DNA from: a virus
Taxonomy: Duplodnaviria; Heunggongvirae; Uroviricota; Caudoviricetes
Length of the DNA: 45,879 nt
Virus record (IMG/VR): IMGVR_UViG_2541047916_000008
Strand: one strand, 5' to 3'
A program made the translations under genes and the position numbers. The notes below the pieces were generated by a model that was given only the letters and a program-made list of their open reading frames with translations, did no database searches and was not told where the DNA came from. Positions 5,124 through 45,503 of the stretch are shown one piece after another (the first letter of the stretch is position 1; every line of letters starts with the position of its first letter).

Positions 5124-5816
5124 TTAATTGTGTCGCTTAAGGGTCTGTGACTGACTGATTAAGACCTTTCCAAAGACCATAAACCGGTGTTCGTTTTCGC
5201 TGGTAATTCCCCATTCGCGGTAAATCTGATTATCAGAAATTACCAGCAGTTTATCAGGTATCATTTGCAGTCGTTTGACGTAAATTTTATCATCAAAACC
5301 AAATACATATATACCATCCCCATCAAACTGATTGATACTGATATCAACGAAGATGAGATCTCCTGGCTCAATGGTTGGACACATACTGTCCCCACGAACG
5401 TTGATAACTTTAATGTGATTTGCTGGTCGTCCACCAAACATCGATACAGCATTATCAGTTCTGTATTCAATGGCATGAATCACATCAATGACATCACCGC
5501 CCTGGATAAGGCCATTTCCCGCACTGGCACTGACATCCAGCATTTCAATACGGAATACATCCTTCACCTGCGCAACATCCTCACTAATACTGTTTTTACA
5601 TACAGTATTACTTTTGAGGTCTGAGGTAAAGAGATCAGCAATATCAACACCTAAGCTCCTGGCAATATTACTCAGGGCTTGTTCAGTGAATTGTTTCTGC
5701 TTACCTGTTTCGAGGCGCGAGATATTCGCCGCATCCACTCCTATTGCTTCAGCGAGATCGGCGATTTTCATGTTCTTCGCCTGGCGAAGTTGTCTGACTC
5801 GATTTCCTATGTTCAT
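5124..5816 (-). CDS. CI-like prophage repressor (HTH_XRE N-terminal domain plus S24 LexA-like autopeptidase C-terminal domain)
   Basis: Track ORF; HTH motif IADLAEAIGVDAANISRLETG; C-terminal G-DSM...K motif of S24 peptidases; divergent from cro-like gene. Confidence 0.8.
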   Translation of the reverse strand: MNIGNRVRQLRQAKNMKIADLAEAIGVDAANISRLETGKQKQFTEQALSNIARSLGVDIADLFTSDLKSNTVCKNSISEDVAQVKDVFRIEMLDVSASAGNGLIQGGDVIDVIHAIEYRTDNAVSMFGGRPANHIKVINVRGDSMCPTIEPGDLIFVDISINQFDGDGIYVFGFDDKIYVKRLQMIPDKLLVISDNQIYREWGITSENEHRFMVFGKVLISQSQTLKRHN

Positions 5817-6174: not shown

Positions 6175-6718
6175 GCATCATTGGAAAGTGGAAAAACAAC
6201 CTGAGTGGTACGTGAAAGCTGTCAGAAAAACTATCGCGGCATTGCCTGGGGGTTACGCTGAAGCTGCTGACTGGCTGGATGTAACAGAGAACGCTTTATT
6301 CAACCGCCTTCGTGCAGATGGCGATCAGATTTTCCCGCTGGGATGGGCAATGGTTTTACAGCGCGCGGCTGGCACTCACTACATTGCGGATGCTGTCGCA
6401 CAGTCTGCTGGTGGGGTGTTCGTATCGCTTCCTGAAATTGAGGAAGTAGAGAACGCCGATATAAACCAGCGCCTGCTGGAAGTCATCGAACAGATCGGGA
6501 ATTACTCAAAGCAGATTCGTTCGGCAATCGAAGATGGGGTCGTGGAGCCACACGAGCAGACAGCAATTAATGATGAGTTGTATCTGTCAATTTCGAAGCT
6601 CCAGGAGCATGCAGCACTGGTCTACAAAATCTTCTGCGCTCCAGAAAAGAGTGACGCCCGCGAGTGTGCAGCTCCGGGCGTCGTGGCGTTTTGTGTCTGT
6701 GGAGAAACTAACGCATGA
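6167..6718 (+). CDS. CII-like phage regulatory protein (CP76-type family), tentative
   Basis: Track ORF immediately after cro-like gene; size (about 180 aa) and position fit enterobacterial CII/CP76-family proteins; family assignment from memory. Confidence 0.4.
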   Translation: MGKHHWKVEKQPEWYVKAVRKTIAALPGGYAEAADWLDVTENALFNRLRADGDQIFPLGWAMVLQRAAGTHYIADAVAQSAGGVFVSLPEIEEVENADINQRLLEVIEQIGNYSKQIRSAIEDGVVEPHEQTAINDELYLSISKLQEHAALVYKIFCAPEKSDARECAAPGVVAFCVCGETNA

Positions 6719-6863
6719 ACAGTTTAACGGCAAATAACCGTTTGTCGCAACAGCTGGTGGTCAGTGTCGCTGAACACCTGTTGTTACGGTATGAATGCAG
6801 ATTACCAAATCACCTGGCTGTAAGTAACCACAGAGAACTTTACCTGACTGTGGGGGGCGAGTT

Positions 6864-7043
6864 GTGCAGGAACTTAACCGCTGGTTTCGTGACGGAAGAG
6901 GGCTTTATGTCCATGTTATTCGTTGGGAGCCAGAAACACAGCGCGTTATCTATCTTCGCAAAGACTACCCGCATGAGTGCTTTAGTCCTTTGTGGAAATT
7001 CAGGCATGATTTTGTTGAGTGTGAAGGACCACCAGCACATTGA
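6864..7043 (+). CDS. Small hypothetical ORF (59 aa, GTG start) not in the 60-aa track
   Basis: Own translation of the frame offset from the track ORF: VQELNRWFRDGRGLYVHVIRWEPETQRVIYLRKDYPHECFSPLWKFRHDFVECEGPPAH; G-rich RBS-like run upstream; terminator about 90 bp downstream. Confidence 0.3.
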   Translation: MQELNRWFRDGRGLYVHVIRWEPETQRVIYLRKDYPHECFSPLWKFRHDFVECEGPPAH

Positions 7044-7128
7044 TTCTGCCATTCCGGGACGTTACACTGTTCAGGCACCTTATAAAGCGGGTGCCGGGCG
7101 TGGAAACCCGGAATTCACCAAAGCGCAC

Positions 7129-7151
7129 AACCGCGCTCTTGCGGTTTTTTT
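7129..7151 (+). terminator. Rho-independent terminator inside the apparent N-terminal extension of the Rha ORF
   Basis: aaccgc-gctctt-gcggtt hairpin followed by T7. Confidence 0.55.
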
Positions 7152-7320
7152 GTGTAATGAGCAGCATTACGCCCAAATTATGGTGGGGCGTGCAGGGCCA
7201 ACTTCGGTTGGGCCGGGTTCTTTGGTGACCGGTATTTCCACCCCTGTACGTCTCACCACCAATAAGGTCGTGGAAAGCCTTGGTGGTGAGTTATTAAAAA
7301 TCACCAAAGAGGCTGCCATC

Positions 7321-7866
7321 ATGGCTACGATCCCAACCCTCACTCAACCTGAAATTGCCATCGTTGATGGTCAGGCTGTTACTTCATCCCTGGCTGTTGC
7401 CAACTTCTTCTCCAAACGTCATGACGATGTACTGAAAAAGATCCGCACGCTTGAATGCTCTGCATCATTCACTGCCCGCAATTTTTCGGTGAGTGATTAC
7501 ACCGATTGCACAGGCCGCAAACTACCTTGCTATCAAATAACCCGCGACGGCTTTGCGTTTCTTGCTATGGGGTTCACGGGTAAACGTGCTGCCCAGTTCA
7601 AAGAGGCATACATCAATGCCTTTAACCAGATGGAGAAACAGCTTTCAAATCCCTCTGTACTGAGCGACGTTGCACATAACGCCAGCGTTCTCTATTCCTA
7701 CATTTCATCAATTCATCAGGTCTGGCTGCAGCAGCTTTATCCTATGTTGGCAAAAGCCGAATCTCCGCTGGCTGTTAGCTTGTATGACTATATTAATGAT
7801 GCTTCGGCACTGGCCTGCCTCATAAATTTGTCGCTGAACCCTTCAGAGGTAAGGGGGCGCAAATGA
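7321..7866 (+). CDS. Rha-family phage regulatory protein
   Basis: Track ORF 6715..7866 trimmed to Met at 7321 (AGAGG RBS); N-terminal Phage_pRha-like segment (VDGQAVTSSLAVANFFSKRHDDVLKKIR). Confidence 0.6.
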   Translation: MATIPTLTQPEIAIVDGQAVTSSLAVANFFSKRHDDVLKKIRTLECSASFTARNFSVSDYTDCTGRKLPCYQITRDGFAFLAMGFTGKRAAQFKEAYINAFNQMEKQLSNPSVLSDVAHNASVLYSYISSIHQVWLQQLYPMLAKAESPLAVSLYDYINDASALACLINLSLNPSEVRGRK

Positions 7867-8087
7867 TCCGGAATATTTTCAAACGGTTTACCAATCAGAC
7901 TTTCCGTTGTCCTCGTCCTGGTCAGTGGTACACCACGCCTGCAGGGCATGTTCTACGTGTCAGCCTGGTTGACCGTGAATGTCAGAAGGTGATTTGTGAA
8001 CCGCTGGGCCGTAATTACCGCATCAGTATGCCGCTTATAGCCTTTTGCTCCGGAAAAAACATGAAGCATCTCGGAGGTGCAGCATGA
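7863..8087 (+). CDS. Small hypothetical protein (74 aa)
   Basis: Track ORF with ATGA overlaps on both sides (translational coupling). Confidence 0.35.
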   Translation: MIRNIFKRFTNQTFRCPRPGQWYTTPAGHVLRVSLVDRECQKVICEPLGRNYRISMPLIAFCSGKNMKHLGGAA

Positions 8088-8902
8088 GTATGGAGCTGAT
8101 GGTTAAAGCGATGAAAATTCGAGTGGGTAATCCATTGCGAAAACTGGTTCTGATCAAGCTGGCTGATAACGCCAGCGATCAGGGTGAGTGCTGGCCCAGC
8201 TACCAGCATATTGCTGACCAGTGCGAGATTAGCAAACGTTCTGTGATGAATCATATTGCGGCTCTTTGTGATTCCGGACTGGTAAAAAAAGTCACCCGGA
8301 AAGGTGAAAAAGGTAACTCAAGTAATATCTATCTCCTTCATCTTGATGGTGCAGGAGATTCACTAGGGGGTAGTGCAAATAATTCACTATCTGGTGCAGC
8401 AAATTCACCAGGTAGTGCAGGAGTTGCACCAGGGGGTGGTGCAGGAGATTCACCCAGAACCAGTCACTCTTTTGAACCAGTCAAAGAACCAGTCAATGAA
8501 CCAATAGCTGTTGGTGCATCTGCTGATGAGTCTGTGCGAGTTCGTTCAAACCGACCGGAATACTCTCCGGAGTTTGAGCAGGCATGGCTGGCATACCCCA
8601 AACGTGCTGGTGGCAATTCAAAATCTGCAGCCTTCAAAGCCTGGAAAGCCCGTTTGAATGAGGGGGTAAACCCCGAAACCATGCTGGAAGGTGTGAAACG
8701 CTATGCGGGCTGGGTATCTGCGATGGGTAACAGCGGCACACAATTTGTGAAACAGGCTGTCACGTTCTTTGGTCCGGATCGTCATTTCGAAGAATCCTGG
8801 GAAGTTCCTGCGGTATCTGCAGCCAGACGTGAGGATCCGTACTTCAAAGCCAGTTACGACAACGTGGACTACAGCCAGATCCCGGCAGGATTCAGGGGGT
8901 GA
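8084..8902 (+). CDS. Replication initiator (O-like; N-terminal winged-helix/HTH, Gly/Ser-rich linker)
   Basis: Track ORF 8045..8902 trimmed to ATG overlapping upstream stop; HTH-like segment YQHIADQCEISKRSVMNHIAAL; iteron-like DNA repeats embedded in the linker-coding part. Confidence 0.5.
   Translation: MSMELMVKAMKIRVGNPLRKLVLIKLADNASDQGECWPSYQHIADQCEISKRSVMNHIAALCDSGLVKKVTRKGEKGNSSNIYLLHLDGAGDSLGGSANNSLSGAANSPGSAGVAPGGGAGDSPRTSHSFEPVKEPVNEPIAVGASADESVRVRSNRPEYSPEFEQAWLAYPKRAGGNSKSAAFKAWKARLNEGVNPETMLEGVKRYAGWVSAMGNSGTQFVKQAVTFFGPDRHFEESWEVPAVSAARREDPYFKASYDNVDYSQIPAGFRG
8348..8510. repeat. Iteron-like direct repeats (putative ori) inside the replication initiator gene
   Basis: Five copies of GGT(G/A)GTGCA(G/A)GAGATTCAC-like units at about 8348, 8368, 8392, 8411, 8436, then three to four GAACCAGTCA units at 8456-8507. 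Confidence 0.45.
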
Positions 8903-8904
8903 TC

Positions 8905-9393
8905 ATGAGTCTTTTGAATGAAGTTCAGAAATTCATTGAAGCCCATCCGGGGTGTACTTCCGGAGACATTGCGGATGCTTTTGCAGGTTACTCACGGCAG
9001 CGCGTTCTGCAGTCAGCAAGCAAGTTACGTCAGAGTGGGCGTGTGGCTCACCGTTGTGAAGGAGATACACGCAGACATTTCCCGCGCCTGACTGAGAGAG
9101 CGCAGGAGCCGGAACCACAACCAGTTCGTGAAACCAGACCTGTGCGCAATTTCTATGTCGGCACTAACGATCCCCGGGTGATTTTGTGCCTGACCCGCCA
9201 GGCTGAAGAACTGGAGTCAAGGGGCTTATACCGTCGTGCTGCAACCGTGTGGATGGCGGCATTCCGTGAAAGCCACTCCCAGCCAGAACGAAACAATTTT
9301 CTGACGCGTCGTGAGCGGTGCTTACGGAAAAGCAGCAAGCGCGCTGCATCGGGTGAAGAGTGGTATCTGTCAGGGAATTACGTGGGGGCTTAA
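8905..9393 (+). CDS. Putative transcriptional regulator (C-terminal half resembles PerC-family activators), tentative
   Basis: Track ORF 8899..9393; segment LTRQAEELESRGLYRRAATVWMAAF resembles PerC-type proteins from memory. Confidence 0.3.
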   Translation: MSLLNEVQKFIEAHPGCTSGDIADAFAGYSRQRVLQSASKLRQSGRVAHRCEGDTRRHFPRLTERAQEPEPQPVRETRPVRNFYVGTNDPRVILCLTRQAEELESRGLYRRAATVWMAAFRESHSQPERNNFLTRRERCLRKSSKRAASGEEWYLSGNYVGA

Positions 9394-10046
9394 TGAGTAA
9401 TAAATATTGCCAGGCGCTGGTGGAACTGCGGAACAAACCAGCCCATGAACTGAAGGAAGTGGGCGATCAGTGGCGCACGCCGGACAACATTTTCTGGGGA
9501 ATTAACACCCTGTTTGGCCCGTTTGTTCTGGATCTGTTCACTGACGGTGATAACGCCAAATGTGCTGCGTATTACACGGCGGAAGACAACGCGCTGGCGC
9601 ATGACTGGTCAGAACGTCTTGCGGAGCTTAAAGGGGCTGCCTTTGGTAATCCCCCATACAGCCGCGCCAGTCAGCATGAGGGGCAATACATCACCGGCAT
9701 GCGTTACATCATGAAACATGCCAGTGCCATGCGTGATAAGGGTGGGCGCTATGTTTTCCTGATCAAAGCTGCCACCAGCGAAGTGTGGTGGCCGGAAGAT
9801 GCAGACCATATTGCTTTTATTCGCGGGCGTATTGGTTTTGAACTGCCTGCCTGGTTTATCCCGAAGGATGAGAAGCAGGTGCCGACAGGCGCTTTCTTCG
9901 CTGGTGCTATTGCTGTTTTCGACAAGACCTGGAAGGGACCGGCAATCAGCTACATCGGGCGCGATGAACTTGAGGCATGTGGTGAGGCGTTTTTGGCGCA
10001 GGTTCGCCAGCAGGCAGAAAAACTTGTCAGGGAGATGGCGGCATGA
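9393..10046 (+). CDS. Phage Dam-like N6-adenine DNA methyltransferase
   Basis: Track ORF 9360..10046 trimmed to ATG overlapping upstream stop; NPPY catalytic motif (FGNPPYS). Confidence 0.65.
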   Translation: MSNKYCQALVELRNKPAHELKEVGDQWRTPDNIFWGINTLFGPFVLDLFTDGDNAKCAAYYTAEDNALAHDWSERLAELKGAAFGNPPYSRASQHEGQYITGMRYIMKHASAMRDKGGRYVFLIKAATSEVWWPEDADHIAFIRGRIGFELPAWFIPKDEKQVPTGAFFAGAIAVFDKTWKGPAISYIGRDELEACGEAFLAQVRQQAEKLVREMAA

Positions 10047-10369
10047 CGACGTTAACTCAATGCCAGCAGCAGGTGCTGGATATGCTGATTTCTTACCAGC
10101 AAGAGCGTGGCTTTCCGCCAACCAATCAGGAGGTGGCAACCATGCTGGGATACCGTTCAGTGAATGCAGCGGTGGAGCATCTTCGCGCACTGGAGAAAAA
10201 AGGCGTCATCACGATAAAGCGTGGCGTGGCCCGGGGGATAACGCTTCATACCGCAGTGAAGGACGACGACAGCGAAGCGGTCGGTATCATCCGCGCACTG
10301 CTTGCCGGTGAGGAGAACGCCAGGCTGCGTGCAGCCCACTGGTTACATGAGAGGGGCCTGAAAGTATGA
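10043..10369 (+). CDS. LexA-like N-terminal DNA-binding domain protein (no S24 peptidase domain)
   Basis: Sequence parallels LexA residues 1-70 (Q..QVLDMI....GFPPT..E.A..LG.RS.NAAVEHL.ALEKKGVI); 108 aa total so the cleavage/dimerisation domain is absent. Confidence 0.55.
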   Translation: MTTLTQCQQQVLDMLISYQQERGFPPTNQEVATMLGYRSVNAAVEHLRALEKKGVITIKRGVARGITLHTAVKDDDSEAVGIIRALLAGEENARLRAAHWLHERGLKV

Positions 10370-10755
10370 AGTTGATCCTGCCTTTCCCGCCCAGTGTGAA
10401 CACGTACTGGCGACACCCCAACAAAGGGGCATTTGCTGGTAAGAGCCTGATAAGCGAGGCGGGGCGAAAATTTCAGAGCGCGGCGTGCGCAGCAATAGTT
10501 GAGCAGTTACGTCGTCTGCCGAAACCAACGTCGGCACCTGCTTCAGTGGAGATCGTGTTGTTTCCTCCGGATAACCGGATCCGCGATCTGGACAACTATA
10601 ACAAGGCGCTGTTTGACGCCCTGACCCACGCGGGTGTGTGGGAAGACGACAGACAGGTGAAAAGAATGCTGGTGGAGTGGGGACCGGTTATCCCGAAAGG
10701 GAAGGTCGAGATCACTATCAGTAAGTATGAGAAACCGGCGGGTGCAGCCGCCTGA
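10366..10755 (+). CDS. rusA: RusA Holliday-junction resolvase
   Basis: Track ORF; RusA motifs (PPSVNTYW, RDLDN, ALFDAL). Confidence 0.75.
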   Translation: MKLILPFPPSVNTYWRHPNKGAFAGKSLISEAGRKFQSAACAAIVEQLRRLPKPTSAPASVEIVLFPPDNRIRDLDNYNKALFDALTHAGVWEDDRQVKRMLVEWGPVIPKGKVEITISKYEKPAGAAA

Positions 10756-10774
10756 TTAAGAGGAGAAACGAAGT

Positions 10775-11584
10775 ATGAATAATCTGATGGTCATTGATGG
10801 TATTGAAGTTCGTCGTGATGCTTATGGGCGTTACAGCCTGAACGATCTGCATCGCGCAGCAGTAGCATCTGGTGCAAATGCCAGAACCAAGGAGCCAGGA
10901 AAGTTTCTTTCCAGCCAACAAACTGTTGAGCTTGTTCATGAATTGACCAACACCCAGAATTTGGGTGTTGACCCGGTGAGTGTGATTCATGGGGGAAATG
11001 AACGGGGAACGTATGTCTGCAAGGAACTGGTGTATGCCTATGCAATGTGGATCAGCCCGTCATTCCATCTGAAGGTGATCCGTACTTTCGACATGGTAAC
11101 CAGCGCACCGGAAAAATTATCCGGACAGGCTGCTGACAAGATGCAGGCTGGTGTGATTCTGCTGGACTTTATGCGCCGGGAATTAAACCTGTCTAACTCT
11201 TCAGTGCTTGGTGCCTGTCAGAAACTCCAGGAGGCTGTTGGCTTACCGAATCTGGCACCGCGCTATGCCATTGATGCTCCTGCTGACGCGCCTGATGGCT
11301 CAAGTCGTCCTACGCTGTCGCTGAGTGCACTGCTGAAACAGTATGGTATCCGCCTTACGGCTAATCAGGCATATCACCAGATGGCGAAGCTGGGGATCGT
11401 TGAACAACGCGAACGATACAGCCGTACCGCGATTAACAACATCAAAAAATTCTGGTCGCTGACAGCGAAAGGTTGCATGTTCGGCAAGAACATCACCAGT
11501 CCCGCAAATCCGCGCGAGACGCAGCCGCATTTCTTCGAATCCCGATTCCCTGAGCTGTTAAAGCTGCTCGATACCGTTCATTGA
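10775..11584 (+). CDS. KilA-N domain protein (antirepressor-like)
   Basis: Track ORF; N-terminal KilA-N-type region (YSLNDLHRA ... YVCKELVYAYAMWISPSFHLKVI). Confidence 0.5.
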   Translation: MNNLMVIDGIEVRRDAYGRYSLNDLHRAAVASGANARTKEPGKFLSSQQTVELVHELTNTQNLGVDPVSVIHGGNERGTYVCKELVYAYAMWISPSFHLKVIRTFDMVTSAPEKLSGQAADKMQAGVILLDFMRRELNLSNSSVLGACQKLQEAVGLPNLAPRYAIDAPADAPDGSSRPTLSLSALLKQYGIRLTANQAYHQMAKLGIVEQRERYSRTAINNIKKFWSLTAKGCMFGKNITSPANPRETQPHFFESRFPELLKLLDTVH

Positions 11585-11585
11585 G

Positions 11586-12581
11586 GTGACCGTGAGAGCA
11601 CTACTGACCCCTGAAATTGCCCCGCGTATGGGGATCGTATTGTTCAGGCCAGGTTCAGAGCTGATGCCCCTGTTTATGCAGGGGCGTGTCCTGCTGGAGC
11701 CTGAGCCGGAACGTTATTCATCTTTCGCCAGTGGTGTCGTTCCGGCGGCATCACAACCGCTGGCGGATGATCCTGCCGTTCGGGCCGTGTTCCGCAATGA
11801 GGAAGTGATCCGTCGTGCTGGTGGCGTGGAATGTCTTGAAAGCTGGTTACTTCGTGAAAAAGGCTGCCAGTGGCCTCATTCCGACTGGCACAGCGAGAAC
11901 ATGACAACAATGCGACACGCGCCGGGCGCAATCCGTCTGTGCTGGCACTGCGATAACCAGCTGCGCGATCAGTTCACGGAACGGCTGGAATCAATGGCAA
12001 CGGATAACTGTGCCCGCTGGGTGTTGTCTGTTGTGCGTCGGGATCTCGGTTTTGATGATAGTCACGTTGTGACAATGCCGGAACTGTGCTGGTGGCTGAT
12101 TCGTAATGACCTGGCGGATGCCTTACCGGAAAGTGCAGCCCGTAAGGCACTGAGATTACCGAAGCCTGTTGTGCCGTCTGTCACCCGGGAAAGTGACCTT
12201 GTGCCTTCGGTTCCTGCCACCAGCATCATCCAGGATAAGGCGAAAAAGGTGCTGGCGCTGAAAGTGGATCCGGAGTCGCCGGAGTCTTTTATGTTACGCC
12301 CAAAACGTCGCCGCTGGGTTAATGAAAAGTACACACGCTGGGTTAAGACACAGCCGTGTGCATGTTGTGGAAAGCCTGCTGATGATCCCCACCACCTGAT
12401 AGGCCACGGTCAGGGGGGAATGGGTACAAAAGCGCATGACCTCTTTGTGTTGCCTTTGTGCAGAAAGCATCACGACGAGCTGCATGCGGATACCGTGGCA
12501 TTTGAAGAGAAGTATGGCTCCCAGCTGGAGCTGATATTTCGTTTTATCGATCGTGCGCTGGCAATTGGCGTGCTGGCCTGA
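11586..12581 (+). CDS. DUF968-family phage protein with C-terminal Cys/His (HNH-like) motif
   Basis: Track ORF (GTG start; alternative GTG at 11592); C-terminal CACCGK...HHLIGHGQ...CRKHHDELH. Confidence 0.45.
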
Positions 12582-12598
12582 TTTTGTGGAGAACGTTG

Positions 12599-12964
12599 AT
12601 GCGTGATATTCAAATGGTTCTTGAACGTTGGGGGGCATGGGTGGCAAATAATCACGAGGATGTCACCTGGTCGTCTATTGCTGCAGGATTTAAAGGACTA
12701 ATCCCTTCAAAAGTAAAATCCCGCCCGCAATGTTGTGACGATGATGCGATGATCATTTGTGGGTGCATGGCTCGCCTGAAAAAGAACAACAGCGATTTGC
12801 ACGATTTATTAGTGGATTATTATGTAGGTGGTATGACGTTTATGGCGCTTGCCCGTAAACATGGGCGTTCTGATTGCTGGGTTGGGCGTTTATTGCAAAA
12901 GGCTGAAGGTGTAGTTGATGGCATGTTAATGATGTTAGAAATTGAGCTAGAGATGGATCGTTAG
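12599..12964 (+). CDS. Late-gene antiterminator Q (QuuD-like)
   Basis: Track ORF 12584..12964 trimmed to ATG ([14 protein letters not shown]); near-identical in recollection to DLP12 QuuD-type antiterminators. Confidence 0.75.
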
Positions 12965-13560: not shown

Positions 13561-13588
13561 TTTACAATCGTAAAAAATCAAATATGCT
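13561..13588 (+). promoter_or_regulatory. Candidate late promoter PR' (TTTACA-N16-TATGCT)
   Basis: Sigma70-like -35/-10 with 16-bp spacer, about 30 bp upstream of a short hairpin/T7 terminator, resembling the PR'-tR' arrangement on which Q acts. Confidence 0.3.
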
Positions 13589-13620
13589 GTTAAGAGTGGT
13601 TACTTCGCCACACAACTTAA

Positions 13621-13646
13621 ACCCGCCGCTGAGCGGTTTTTTTGTA
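13621..13646 (+). terminator. Candidate tR' terminator
   Basis: cccgccgc-tgag-gcgg short GC hairpin followed by T7. Confidence 0.45.
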
Positions 13647-13969: not shown

Positions 13970-14119
13970 TGGCGGTTTCCTGCTGTGAAAATGGGCGGCT
14001 GGTGGGTGTTGGTAGCACCTGCCAGCCATTCGCTCATGCCTACTGGTCACAAGCGAACCACGGCCCACTGCTTTAGCGCAAAAGCAGAGTGAGCCTACCA
14101 GAGTTACGCTTACTGATCC

Positions 14120-15172
14120 ATGAAAAATACTGTAAAAATAAACAGTGTTGATTTAATCAACGCTGATTGCCTGCATTTTATTCAGTCCCTGCCTGATGAT
14201 TCCATTGACCTGATTGTTACCGATCCGCCTTACTTCAAGGTGAAACCCAACGGCTGGGACAATCAGTGGAAAGGGGACGAAGATTACCTTAAGTGGCTGG
14301 ACCACTGTCTGGCCCAGTTCTGGCGGGTGTTGAAACCTGCCGGAAGCCTTTACCTGTTCTGTGGGCATCGCCTGGCATCTGATATTGAGATCATGATGCG
14401 TGAACGTTTCAACGTGCTTAACCATATCATCTGGGCGAAGCCGTCCGGACGTTGGAATGGGTGTAATAAAGAAAGTCTGCGCGCATATTTTCCTGCCACA
14501 GAGCGCGTTCTGTTTGCTGAACATTACCAGGGGCCATATCGCGGCAAAAGTGACGGCTATGCGGCAAAAGAAAGGGAACTCAAACAGCACATAATGGCAC
14601 CGCTGATATCGTATTTCAGGGATGCTCGTGCCGAACTGGGTATAACGGCAAAACAGATTGCCGAAGCCACTGGTAAGAAAAATATGGTTTCCCACTGGTT
14701 TGGTGCCAGTCAGTGGCAGTTGCCGAATGAGGCTGACTACCGGAAGTTGCAGGCACTGTTTTCCCGTATAGCGGCAGAGAAGTTTCAGGAAAAACAACTG
14801 GAACAACCACACCACCAGCTGGTGGCATCTTATGATTCACTGAATCGCAAATATTATGAATTGCTGGATGAGTTTAAAACTCTCCGGCGCTATTTCTCCG
14901 TATCAGTTTCCGTGCCTTATACCGACGTCTGGATGCATAAACCCGTTCAGTTCTACCCGGGGAAACATCCGTGTGAGAAACCGGCGGATATGCTCAGGCA
15001 AATAATCAATGCCAGTAGTCGACCAGGTGATCTGGTTGCTGATTTTTTTATGGGCTCCGGTTCCACAATAAAAGCAGCAATGGCGCTGGGGCGTCGGGCC
15101 TTAGGTGTTGAGCTTGAGTCAGAGCGGTTTAACCAGACAGTGAAAGAGATAAACGAGCTGGTGGGGAAATAA
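14120..15172 (+). CDS. DNA methyltransferase, beta-class N6A/N4C type (DPPY motif IV N-terminal, FxGSG motif I C-terminal); no adjacent restriction gene
   Basis: Track ORF; [10 protein letters not shown] near N-terminus and DFFMGSGST near C-terminus. Confidence 0.7.
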
Positions 15173-42969: not shown

Positions 42970-43218
42970 TTAGTGAACAAACCACTCGTCAGCAGACTCC
43001 CAGGTATCTTTCAGAGTTTCCTGAACAAAAGTTTTAGCTGAATCTTTATCGGCGGTGCGCGTAACAGAAAGGCCATCGTTGCTGGTGGCTTTTACGATCA
43101 CCTCTACATCGTCATAACGTTTACTGATGCGTCGGGTTAATTCTTCCTTTAACGCATCCACAGCACCGGTTGGCATTTTAGTCATTTTTTCTTTGGCTAT
43201 GCAGATTTCAATACGCAT
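42970..43218 (-). CDS. DinI-family DNA-damage-inducible protein
   Basis: Track ORF, 82 aa; MRIEI.IAK...P.GA.DAL..EL..RI......E.........LSV......D......[12 protein letters not shown] matches DinI. Confidence 0.7.
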
Positions 43219-43231
43219 AAAAGTCCCTCTA

Positions 43232-43279
43232 TACTGTGTTTGTATACAGTGTTATTTTTGACTGTATGGATAAACAGTG
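43232..43279. promoter_or_regulatory. Two tandem LexA (SOS) boxes upstream of dinI-like gene
   Basis: tACTGTgtttgtatACAGtg (43232-43251) and gACTGTatggataaACAGtg (43260-43279); both CTGT-N8-ACAG. Confidence 0.65.
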
Positions 43280-44377
43280 TCAAGAGGTCTTATTTCTGCT
43301 CTTTTGGAGCTCTTCAAAACGATTATGTAAAGATTTCGGATACAGTTCGGTATATACCTGCCATAGCACGTTTAATGAACGATGCCCTGTAACTTGGGCG
43401 ACTTCCTCAATACTAAAACCAGCCTCAAATAAGCGACTTGCCCCTTCTCTACGCAAATCATGGTATCGCAGATCTTTAATACCTAATTTGCTTCTTACCC
43501 TCTGAAATCCCGCAGTAACAGAAGTGCTGTTATATGGAAAAATGAATTCCGATTTTTGGGGCTGTCGTTGGACGATATCCCAGGCTTCCCCAAGCAAGGC
43601 TACTTTCATGTGGTTGCCTTCCTTTTTGCGTGGATCTTTCCTGTCTCTTACGAGTATAGATTTTTGTTCCTGGTCGAGATCTTCCCATCGTAACCGGCAT
43701 ACTTCTCCGATTCGCATACAGGACCACACAGAAAATTTGAGGATATCAACGAACGGAATTTTTGAGCATTTATGTGTAGATCGTTGTTGAAGACCTTCAA
43801 TGAGCATGTCCAGTTCATCAGATGCCGGTCTACGATTACGACGGTTTGATTTACCAATCAAACCAAGTTTAAGTAGATATGGACGAGCACTTTTCGCCGG
43901 GTTTGATGTGTAATTAATTCCGTATACAGGTTTGGCCGCATCCAGAACACTGCCAAGATAACTAACATCGTGGCTGACTGTTGCTGGACCTGCACCAGCG
44001 TTGTTTCTTAGCCTACAATGTTCAATTACGTCATTTTCTGTCAGTTCGGATAGTTTGATCGCGGAGATGTCACTATCCATAAGCAGTTCCAGCACATATC
44101 TTTTAGTACGACCTGCTTTACCTCCGGCATTTGGGTCATTTAAATATTTGTGTAGTAAGTCACGGACTGTAAGTCCGTCAACTGCATTTGATGATGGAAT
44201 GCCATATAGATCTAATTCCATCACTTTCTGTGTACCCCATGTTTTGGCATGGGCATGTTTAGGGAATGTTTTGCTTTCCCTGTAAGTGATAACACCTTTT
44301 TCTTTGATAATCACATTACAGCGATAGCGTGGTGTGCCATCGGATTTTAGTCGTTTCTCTATGTTATAGTACGCCAT
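43280..44377 (-). CDS. Tyrosine recombinase (phage integrase), divergent from dusA
   Basis: Track ORF, 365 aa; C-terminal R...HDLR...Y catalytic pattern (RYHDLRREGASR ... LWQVYTELY); AT-rich. Confidence 0.8.
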   Translation of the reverse strand: MAYYNIEKRLKSDGTPRYRCNVIIKEKGVITYRESKTFPKHAHAKTWGTQKVMELDLYGIPSSNAVDGLTVRDLLHKYLNDPNAGGKAGRTKRYVLELLMDSDISAIKLSELTENDVIEHCRLRNNAGAGPATVSHDVSYLGSVLDAAKPVYGINYTSNPAKSARPYLLKLGLIGKSNRRNRRPASDELDMLIEGLQQRSTHKCSKIPFVDILKFSVWSCMRIGEVCRLRWEDLDQEQKSILVRDRKDPRKKEGNHMKVALLGEAWDIVQRQPQKSEFIFPYNSTSVTAGFQRVRSKLGIKDLRYHDLRREGASRLFEAGFSIEEVAQVTGHRSLNVLWQVYTELYPKSLHNRFEELQKSRNKTS

Positions 44378-44395
44378 TACACGACCTCGTTATTT

Positions 44396-44432
44396 CGGGT
44401 TCCCATAAATCGTGGGAACCTGTGCGGGAACC
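44396..44432. promoter_or_regulatory. GGGAACC repeat cluster (one inverted pair plus one direct copy) between integrase and dusA; candidate integrase/att-associated or promoter element
   Basis: ggttccca-taaatcg-tgggaacc palindrome (44398-44420) then cgggaacc (44425-44432). Confidence 0.35.
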
Positions 44433-44465
44433 TAACGCGAGAAAAATAGCCTGAAATGTTCAAAA

Positions 44466-45503
44466 ATGCACGATAATCCTGAAACACAGAAAACTAATCA
44501 AACCAGCGCGATGCCTGAGAAAACTGGCGCTTACGGGAGTTCTCGGTTTAGCATTGCTCCTATGCTTGACTGGACGGACAGACATTGCCGTTATTTCCTG
44601 CGTCTGCTTTCCCGCAATACGTTGCTGTATACCGAAATGGTGACCACAGGGGCGATTATTCACGGTAAAGGTGATTACCTGGCGTACAGTGAAGAAGAAC
44701 ATCCGGTAGCGTTGCAACTCGGGGGTAGCGATCCGGCGGCGCTGGCACAGTGTGCGAAGCTGGCAGAAGCGCGCGGATATGATGAGATCAACCTGAATGT
44801 CGGCTGCCCGTCTGACCGGGTGCAGAACGGCATGTTTGGTGCGTGTCTGATGGGTAATGCGCAGCTGGTTGCCGACTGCGTGAAAGCGATGCGCGATGTG
44901 GTGTCGATTCCGGTGACGGTGAAAACGCGTATTGGCATCGATGATCAGGACAGCTATGAATTTCTCTGCGATTTCATCAACACCGTTTCCGGCAAAGGTG
45001 AGTGTGAGATGTTCATCATCCACGCACGTAAAGCCTGGCTTTCTGGGTTAAGTCCGAAAGAAAACCGTGAGATCCCGCCGCTCGATTATCCGCGTGTGTA
45101 TCAACTGAAGCGTGACTTTCCGCATCTGACGATGTCGATTAACGGTGGTATCAAGTCGCTGGAAGAAGCTAAAGCGCATTTGCAACATATGGATGGCGTG
45201 ATGGTCGGGCGCGAGGCGTATCAGAATCCGGGGATTCTGGCGGCGGTAGACCGAGAGATTTTTGGTTCCTCGGATACCGATGCCGATCCGGTGGCGGTAG
45301 TGCGCGCCATGTATCCGTACATTGAGCGTGAACTCAGCCAGGGTACGTATCTCGGCCATATTACCCGGCATATGCTGGGCTTGTTCCAGGGTATTCCTGG
45401 CGCGCGGCAGTGGCGGCGTTATTTAAGTGAAAATGCCCATAAAGCGGGTGCAGACATTAATGTGCTGGAACACGCGCTCAAACTGGTGGCGGATAAGCGT
45501 TAA
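44466..45503 (+). CDS. dusA: tRNA-dihydrouridine synthase A
   Basis: Track ORF, 345 aa; DusA-type TIM-barrel flavoenzyme sequence (NLNVGCPS, catalytic Cys, FMN-binding motifs); followed by pspG as in E. coli. Confidence 0.9.

Follow-up and report, generated by a model that had tools for sequence, protein, structure and literature searches.

The window, the whole 45,879-nucleotide stretch of DNA that was analysed, was an mEp460/CPS-53-like lambdoid prophage integrated at dusA, and the integrase gene lay at its right end. The gene of interest encoded a small LexA-like protein and lay in the early rightward operon. The features of the locus and the LexA-type sites elsewhere in the window were as follows.

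5124..5816, minus strand: CI-like repressor with HTH and S24 domains
5588-5607: near-perfect LexA box inside the cI-like gene (score 25.6), candidate target only
8045..12964, plus strand: early rightward (nin-like) operon (replication protein, PerC-like, Dam, LexA-like, RusA, KilA-N, DUF968, Q)
9393..10046, plus strand: Dam-type N6-adenine methyltransferase, its stop codon overlapping the LexA-like start (ATGA)
10043..10369, plus strand: LexA-DBD-only gene, ATG start, 108 aa plus stop; PHROG 362; identical to the RefSeq 'LexA family transcriptional regulator'
10043..10246, plus strand: LexA-type winged helix-turn-helix, residues 1-68, three helices and a two-strand wing by Pfam, structure model and 3jso
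10157..10198, plus strand: recognition helix SVNAAVEHLRALEK, residues 39-52, with S39, N41, A42 and E45 as in LexA and E44 replaced by V
10262..10351, plus strand: two-helix hairpin, residues 74-103, conserved, pLDDT ~88; proposed dimerisation or partner-binding element
10366..10755, plus strand: RusA Holliday-junction resolvase, its start codon overlapping the LexA-like stop (ATGA)
14128-14147: LexA box of the late-region methyltransferase, 8 nt past the start codon (score 22.6), candidate target only
42970..43218, minus strand: dinI-like gene (Pfam DinI, E=1e-19)
43232-43251, minus strand: LexA box of the dinI-like promoter (score 21.8), candidate target only
43260-43279, minus strand: LexA box of the dinI-like promoter (score 19.3), candidate target only

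A YafO-family toxin gene was present at the left end of the prophage (1-435), and the integrase region adjoined dusA (43280-45503). In strain E138, which carries a near-identical prophage, the gene order was lexA-dinF-yjbJ-zur-prophage-dusA, and the first annotated prophage gene was only ~2.7 kb from the end of host lexA (locus L001, 6702 versus 9403). This proximity is probably coincidental and follows from where the dusA attachment site lies.

The sequence-only reading had likened the 108-aa protein to the N-terminal winged-helix domain of LexA, and had described it as lacking the S24 domain and being uncleavable. Each of these points was borne out. Pfam LexA_DNA_bind (PF01726) matched at E=2.6e-19 with 69 bits (cut-off 23.7) over its entire profile (1-65/65), and phmmer against the PDB recovered E. 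coli LexA chains at about E=1e-15, with residues 2-70 aligned position for position. The AlphaFold2 monomer model (mean pLDDT 78.7, pTM 0.53) had the LexA fold of three helices and a two-strand wing, and superposed on DNA-bound LexA (3jso) at 1.4 Å over 68 residues with 50% identity. Pfam found no Peptidase_S24 in the protein; the chain ends at residue 108, and rusA begins at the stop codon. The NCBIfam lexA equivalog TIGR00498 reached 70.3 bits, under its cut-off of 110.95, and only profile positions 1-91 of 203 were matched. Since the S24 domain is absent, the protein is unable to self-cleave and RecA cannot inactivate it. PHROG 362 ("transcriptional repressor") spanned the whole protein (E=2.6e-59, residues 1-108 against profile positions 1-106/106), and the PADLOC defence models gave no meaningful match.

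Length and substitution patterns were compared across relatives, as the sequence-only reading had left room for an N-terminal fragment of a longer, disrupted gene. The length was 104-108 aa among close relatives from Escherichia, Shigella, Citrobacter, Salmonella and Hafnia, and the full-length relatives recovered by exhaustive profile search were 104-116 aa at 35-50% identity, with both the winged helix and the C-terminal segment kept. Against the Shigella, SfV and Kosakonia copies, dN/dS was 0.11-0.23 in the winged helix and in the C-terminal 40 residues alike; against the Citrobacter copy it was 0.10 for the winged helix only, dS being saturated in the C-terminal part. These ratios indicate purifying selection on both the winged helix and the C-terminal half. 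A gene fragment or pseudogene was rejected, given the length conservation, the dN/dS and the intact copies. Residues 86-90 (LLAGE, 10298-10312, with A88-G89) aligned with VAAGE of LexA, which holds the self-cleavage site Ala84-Gly85. This segment was not conserved in distant relatives and was helical in the predicted structure; it is a possible trace of the ancestral LexA linker.

At the C-terminus, the model predicted helices at residues 74-87 and 93-103 (pLDDT ~88). The hydrophobic positions I82, I83, L86, L87, A93, A97, W100 and L101 were conserved, and the hairpin was kept down to 35-40% identity. A hairpin profile searched against PDB sequences found no relative of solved structure, only artefactual 10-residue matches to designer repeat proteins. 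The LexA DNA-binding domain alone is an ineffective operator repressor but becomes effective when fused to any dimerising module (PMC12369361, PMC7102963). The combination of this domain with an interacting module is the principle of LexA two-hybrid systems (PMC12369361), and LexA-based light switches give >500-fold regulation (PMC7102963). From the monomer model (pTM 0.53), the hairpin could be such a dimerising module. Proteins P0126, P0128, P0129, P0134, P0136, P0137 and P0140 each gave two separate LexA-head profile matches per chain and may be tandem 'pseudo-dimer' LexA-head proteins.

The DNA-contact residues of E. coli LexA are listed as S39, N41, A42, E44 and E45 in a 2026 paper citing Knegtel 1995. 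By that second-hand list, four of the five (S39, N41, A42 and E45) were kept in the LexA-like protein, with V in place of E44; LexA R28 was replaced by N. In the wide family alignment, S39 was invariant, N41 nearly so and E45 mostly kept, and Glu never occurred at position 44. Some enterobacterial relatives had changed contact positions (SVNTITGH in Citrobacter, SPNAAVAH in Enterobacter), and the host SOS boxes were invariant where these changes occurred. From the recognition helix, the winged helix probably reads CTGT-type half-sites, and the occupation of SOS boxes by the protein, as the sequence-only reading proposed, is plausible.

Transcription of the gene was considered from its surroundings. 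The module around it contained almost no intergenic DNA, and the scan of positions 8000-10800 found no promoter-like site upstream of or within the gene and no terminator-like site on the plus strand; the single weak promoter-like match was downstream of it, at 10756-10783. Given the overlapping start and stop codons and the lack of such sites in the scanned region, the gene is a translationally coupled, internal cistron of the early rightward operon. A separate promoter for dam and the LexA-like gene, annotated in SfV, was rejected, as its hexamers were weak (TTGCGC-15-TACGGA) and the −35 was altered in the window. Because the gene sits in the early operon without its own promoter, it is probably silent in the lysogen, and production of the protein most likely starts with that of the delayed-early genes, upon induction or infection.

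Two further elements were seen in this part of the window. At 13561-13637, a pR'-like promoter (TTTACA-16-TATGCT) preceded a strong intrinsic terminator (GCCGCTGAGCGGT and a run of T), and the two look like a Q-dependent late promoter and tR' pair. Rfam matches at gathering level to isrK (7075-7151) and C4 antisense RNA (7176-7263) both fell inside the Ash+Rha ORF called at 6715..7866. The 7075-7263 segment resembles the antirepressor control elements of the P1 immI/Gifsy-1 IsrK type, and part of the ORF called over it may be wrong.

The gene itself is an already known and very common nin-region gene, so that its recognition as LexA-like is a correct re-discovery of a homology annotation. Of 5426 complete E. 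coli genomes, 2233 contained it, under the PGAP name "LexA family transcriptional regulator/protein". At 95-100% identity it also occurred in SfV (orf42), SfII, SfIV, mEp460, cdtI, Ayreon, 1720a-02 and many Stx2a and Stx2c phages, annotated variously as "LexA DNA binding domain protein", "LexA-like protein", "LexA family protein" and "repressor, lexA family". Viral structure databases held many further LexA-head-only phage proteins. A full-text literature search found no functional study of the enterobacterial LexA-DBD-only family. The gene lay directly 5' of rusA in the window, SfV, mEp460 and cdtI, and held the same position in Citrobacter (67% identity), Kosakonia (~51%), Enterobacter (42%) and mEp390 (47%, Dam absent). 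The sole neighbour common to all relatives examined was rusA.

LexA boxes were scored with a position matrix trained on E. coli SOS boxes. When the lexA operators were removed from the training set, both host lexA operators were still recovered (17.4 and 18.1). Apart from these, the matrix matched only the copies of the four prophage boxes, at 21.4-25.5, in ~60 kb covering the near-identical E138 prophage with its flanks (L001/L002); the boxes therefore outscored the host lexA operators left out of training. The scores listed above for the boxes in the window itself come from a separate version of the matrix. The motif CTGT-N8-ACAG occurred five times in the window against 0.6-0.7 expected, and other spacings were not enriched. 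A dedicated operator of non-canonical spacing was rejected, as the counts of CTGT-N(0-20)-ACAG and of the inverse arrangement were enriched at N=8 only. No non-SOS palindrome was shared by at least four of the window, Citrobacter, Kosakonia, Enterobacter and mEp390 loci, by exact matches, which could miss degenerate sites. Palindromes common to three of these lineages were coding or terminator sequences, or of SOS type. Near the late promoter or the module, exact matching likewise found no gp6-type or other shared palindrome.

The dinI-like gene behind two LexA boxes in 43232-43279 and the CI-like HTH+S24 repressor, both noted from the sequence beforehand, were confirmed. Their proposed union with the LexA-like gene in a dedicated phage module was not supported. 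The LexA-like and dinI-like genes are 33 kb apart; SfV has the LexA-like gene and lacks both dinI and its boxes; and SfV and cdtI carry the gene alongside a different cI allele without the internal box. Phage records with the boxed late methylase also had the LexA-like gene in 27 of 28 cases. This co-occurrence was rejected as a functional link and attributed to linkage, since the 27 records are at least 99% identical in that segment, the two features are only 4 kb apart, and Citrobacter phage phiNP keeps the exact methylase box with the LexA-like gene and rusA absent. The prophage boxes are real LexA-type sites, independent of the phage LexA-like protein, and host LexA explains them well enough.

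The box inside the cI-like gene (TACTGTTTTTACATACAGTA) codes for NTVCKNSI, the linker that joins the HTH domain to the S24 domain. The box was conserved in mEp460 and in two prophages, one of Citrobacter (L005) and one of Shigella (L003), and only its spacer had drifted. No promoter-like hexamers were found beside it, and it might serve as a roadblock or as an internal or antisense promoter. The boxed late-region N6/N4 DNA methyltransferase (14120..15172) sits where Stx phages carry toxin genes. Its box was conserved in SfV, mEp460, cdtI and phiNP, and in Kosakonia (L007 6794) the palindrome was kept despite different codons, which implies selection at the DNA level. The ~130 nt 5' of this methyltransferase (~13985-14118) look structured and were conserved among phages of E. 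coli, Kosakonia and Citrobacter; Rfam and tRNA searches of the region gave no matches.

Taken as a whole, our best explanation, which we hold tentatively, is that enterobacterial lambdoid phages derived a sequence-specific DNA-binding regulator from the N-terminal domain of enterobacterial LexA. In its specific form, which we also favour with less than even confidence, the protein is a RecA-proof, SOS-box-type repressor that dimerises through its hairpin. Its dimerisation, DNA target, direction of regulation and purpose are what we infer in this proposal. The protein would appear after infection or induction from the coupled Dam, LexA-like and RusA cistrons. Its winged helix, with the key base-reading residues of LexA, would read CTGT-type half-sites, and the C-terminal two-helix hairpin would substitute for the S24 domain of LexA by pairing two heads. 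Lacking the cleavage domain, the protein would be RecA-proof, and once host LexA was destroyed it would keep or restore repression at LexA-boxed promoters. It would act on the SOS regulon of the host and on boxed genes of the phage itself (the dinI-like gene, the late methylase and the site inside cI).

This repressor proposal is favoured by the LexA winged helix-turn-helix with four of five contact residues, by the selection on both halves and the conserved hairpin, by half-site enrichment at the canonical 8-bp spacing only with no other palindrome across the divergent loci, by the scores of the four boxes, which exceed those of the host lexA operators, by the placement of the gene within the early operon, and by the ability of a LexA DNA-binding domain fused to a dimerising module to repress operators. 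It is weakened by the constant absence of Glu at position 44, the loss of R28 and the contact-position changes in enterobacterial members, and also by LexA boxes that do not co-travel with the gene. A further weakness is that the sole studied analogue, gp6 of the Bacillus phage GIL01, evolved a new site and activates transcription.

That analogue suggests the main alternative, in which the protein has drifted to a phage-specific site and switches a phage promoter (e.g., in late or accessory timing), leaving the host SOS regulon untouched. In GIL01, the truncated LexA homologue gp6 binds GaCACAnnTGTGaC, at about −43.5 of the late promoter P3, and acts as an activator of this promoter (PMC6182141). 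A similar role would fit the replacement of E44 in every member, the variability of positions 42-45 among the enterobacterial ones, and the location of the gene just upstream of Q and the late region. However, exact matching revealed no alternative conserved palindrome in or near the module across five divergent lineages, and the module is almost without intergenic DNA. Furthermore, gp6 is much more distant from the LexA of its host, in the recognition helix, than the window protein is from E. coli LexA (50% identity, with S39, N41, A42 and E45). We regard this alternative as possible but doubtful.

A role outside transcription was considered improbable. Here the protein would be a DNA-handling accessory that binds DNA with low specificity, or that recruits or limits RusA or the neighbouring methylase. 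The suggestion comes from linkage only: all relatives examined have rusA next to the gene, with overlapping codons, at identities as low as 42% and also where Dam is missing (mEp390). Unrelated nin-region genes are, however, commonly tightly linked, and the strong conservation of the base-reading residues S39 and N41 argues for sequence-specific reading. RusA is also present in other lambdoid phages and DLP12, where it is not known to have a LexA-like partner, which counts against an accessory function. Finally, a non-functional remnant of a captured or truncated lexA would account for a lexA equivalog match confined to profile positions 1-91 and for the alignment of LLAGE with the LexA cleavage-site region. 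It is very hard to reconcile with a length of 104-116 aa held across genera down to 35-40% identity, with dN/dS of 0.1-0.2 for both halves, with an intact ORF in the 2233 E. coli genomes and with the conserved codon overlap with rusA, and we consider it highly improbable.

About two-fifths of sequenced E. coli genomes carry the gene, as do Shiga-toxin, cytolethal-distending-toxin and Shigella serotype-converting phages, all of them elements that the SOS response and SOS-triggering antibiotics induce. If the protein is an uncleavable stand-in for LexA, induced prophages would actively reshape the host damage response, which could have consequences for mutagenesis and toxin release, for the way co-resident prophages compete and for antibiotic outcomes. 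A broader conjecture, which we think possible but doubtful, is that lambdoid phages (Stx2 phages among them), when induced or infecting, produce a LexA surrogate that is RecA-proof and re-silences the host SOS regulon after LexA is lost, together with SOS-controlled rivals (LexA-dependent prophages, colicins and SOS toxins). If true, this would be a widespread phage-driven SOS shut-off, in ~40% of E. coli genomes. If the protein is instead a gp6-like regulator, it would be a second, independent case of a phage re-using the LexA head.

Among known systems, the window gene is a member of the group formed by the PHROG 362 and RefSeq 'LexA family protein' phages and shares their Dam, LexA-like, RusA position; the names in that group were assigned from homology only. 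GIL01 gp6 is the closest studied analogue. Both are phage-encoded LexA DNA-binding domains without a protease domain, located among early genes. In contrast, gp6 is 66 aa long, stops after the wing and so lacks the hairpin, and its key residue K38 aligns with N41 of the LexA-like protein. The site and the activator role are established for gp6. BLASTP gave no alignment between the two proteins, and orthology was rejected on that result. The lack of pairwise similarity points to independent captures, with gp6 coming from a different host LexA.

Engineered LexA-DBD fusions (the bacterial two-hybrid and LEVI/LexRO systems) join a LexA head to a heterologous dimerising module to give an uncleavable operator-bound repressor, which is the architecture proposed here (PMC12369361, PMC7102963). 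Those constructs are artificial and their dimerisation has been demonstrated, whereas in the LexA-like protein the partner module is natural and would dimerise by inference from the model. With E. coli LexA itself (1lea, 1jhh and 3jso), the protein shares S39, N41, A42 and E45 of the recognition helix and an alignment that extends into the linker and cleavage-site region. It differs in having no S24 protease/dimerisation domain, and so no RecA-stimulated self-cleavage, and in the E44 to V and R28 to N replacements. In place of the C-terminal domain of LexA it carries a 35-residue helical hairpin, and it is encoded by a phage, in an early lytic operon.
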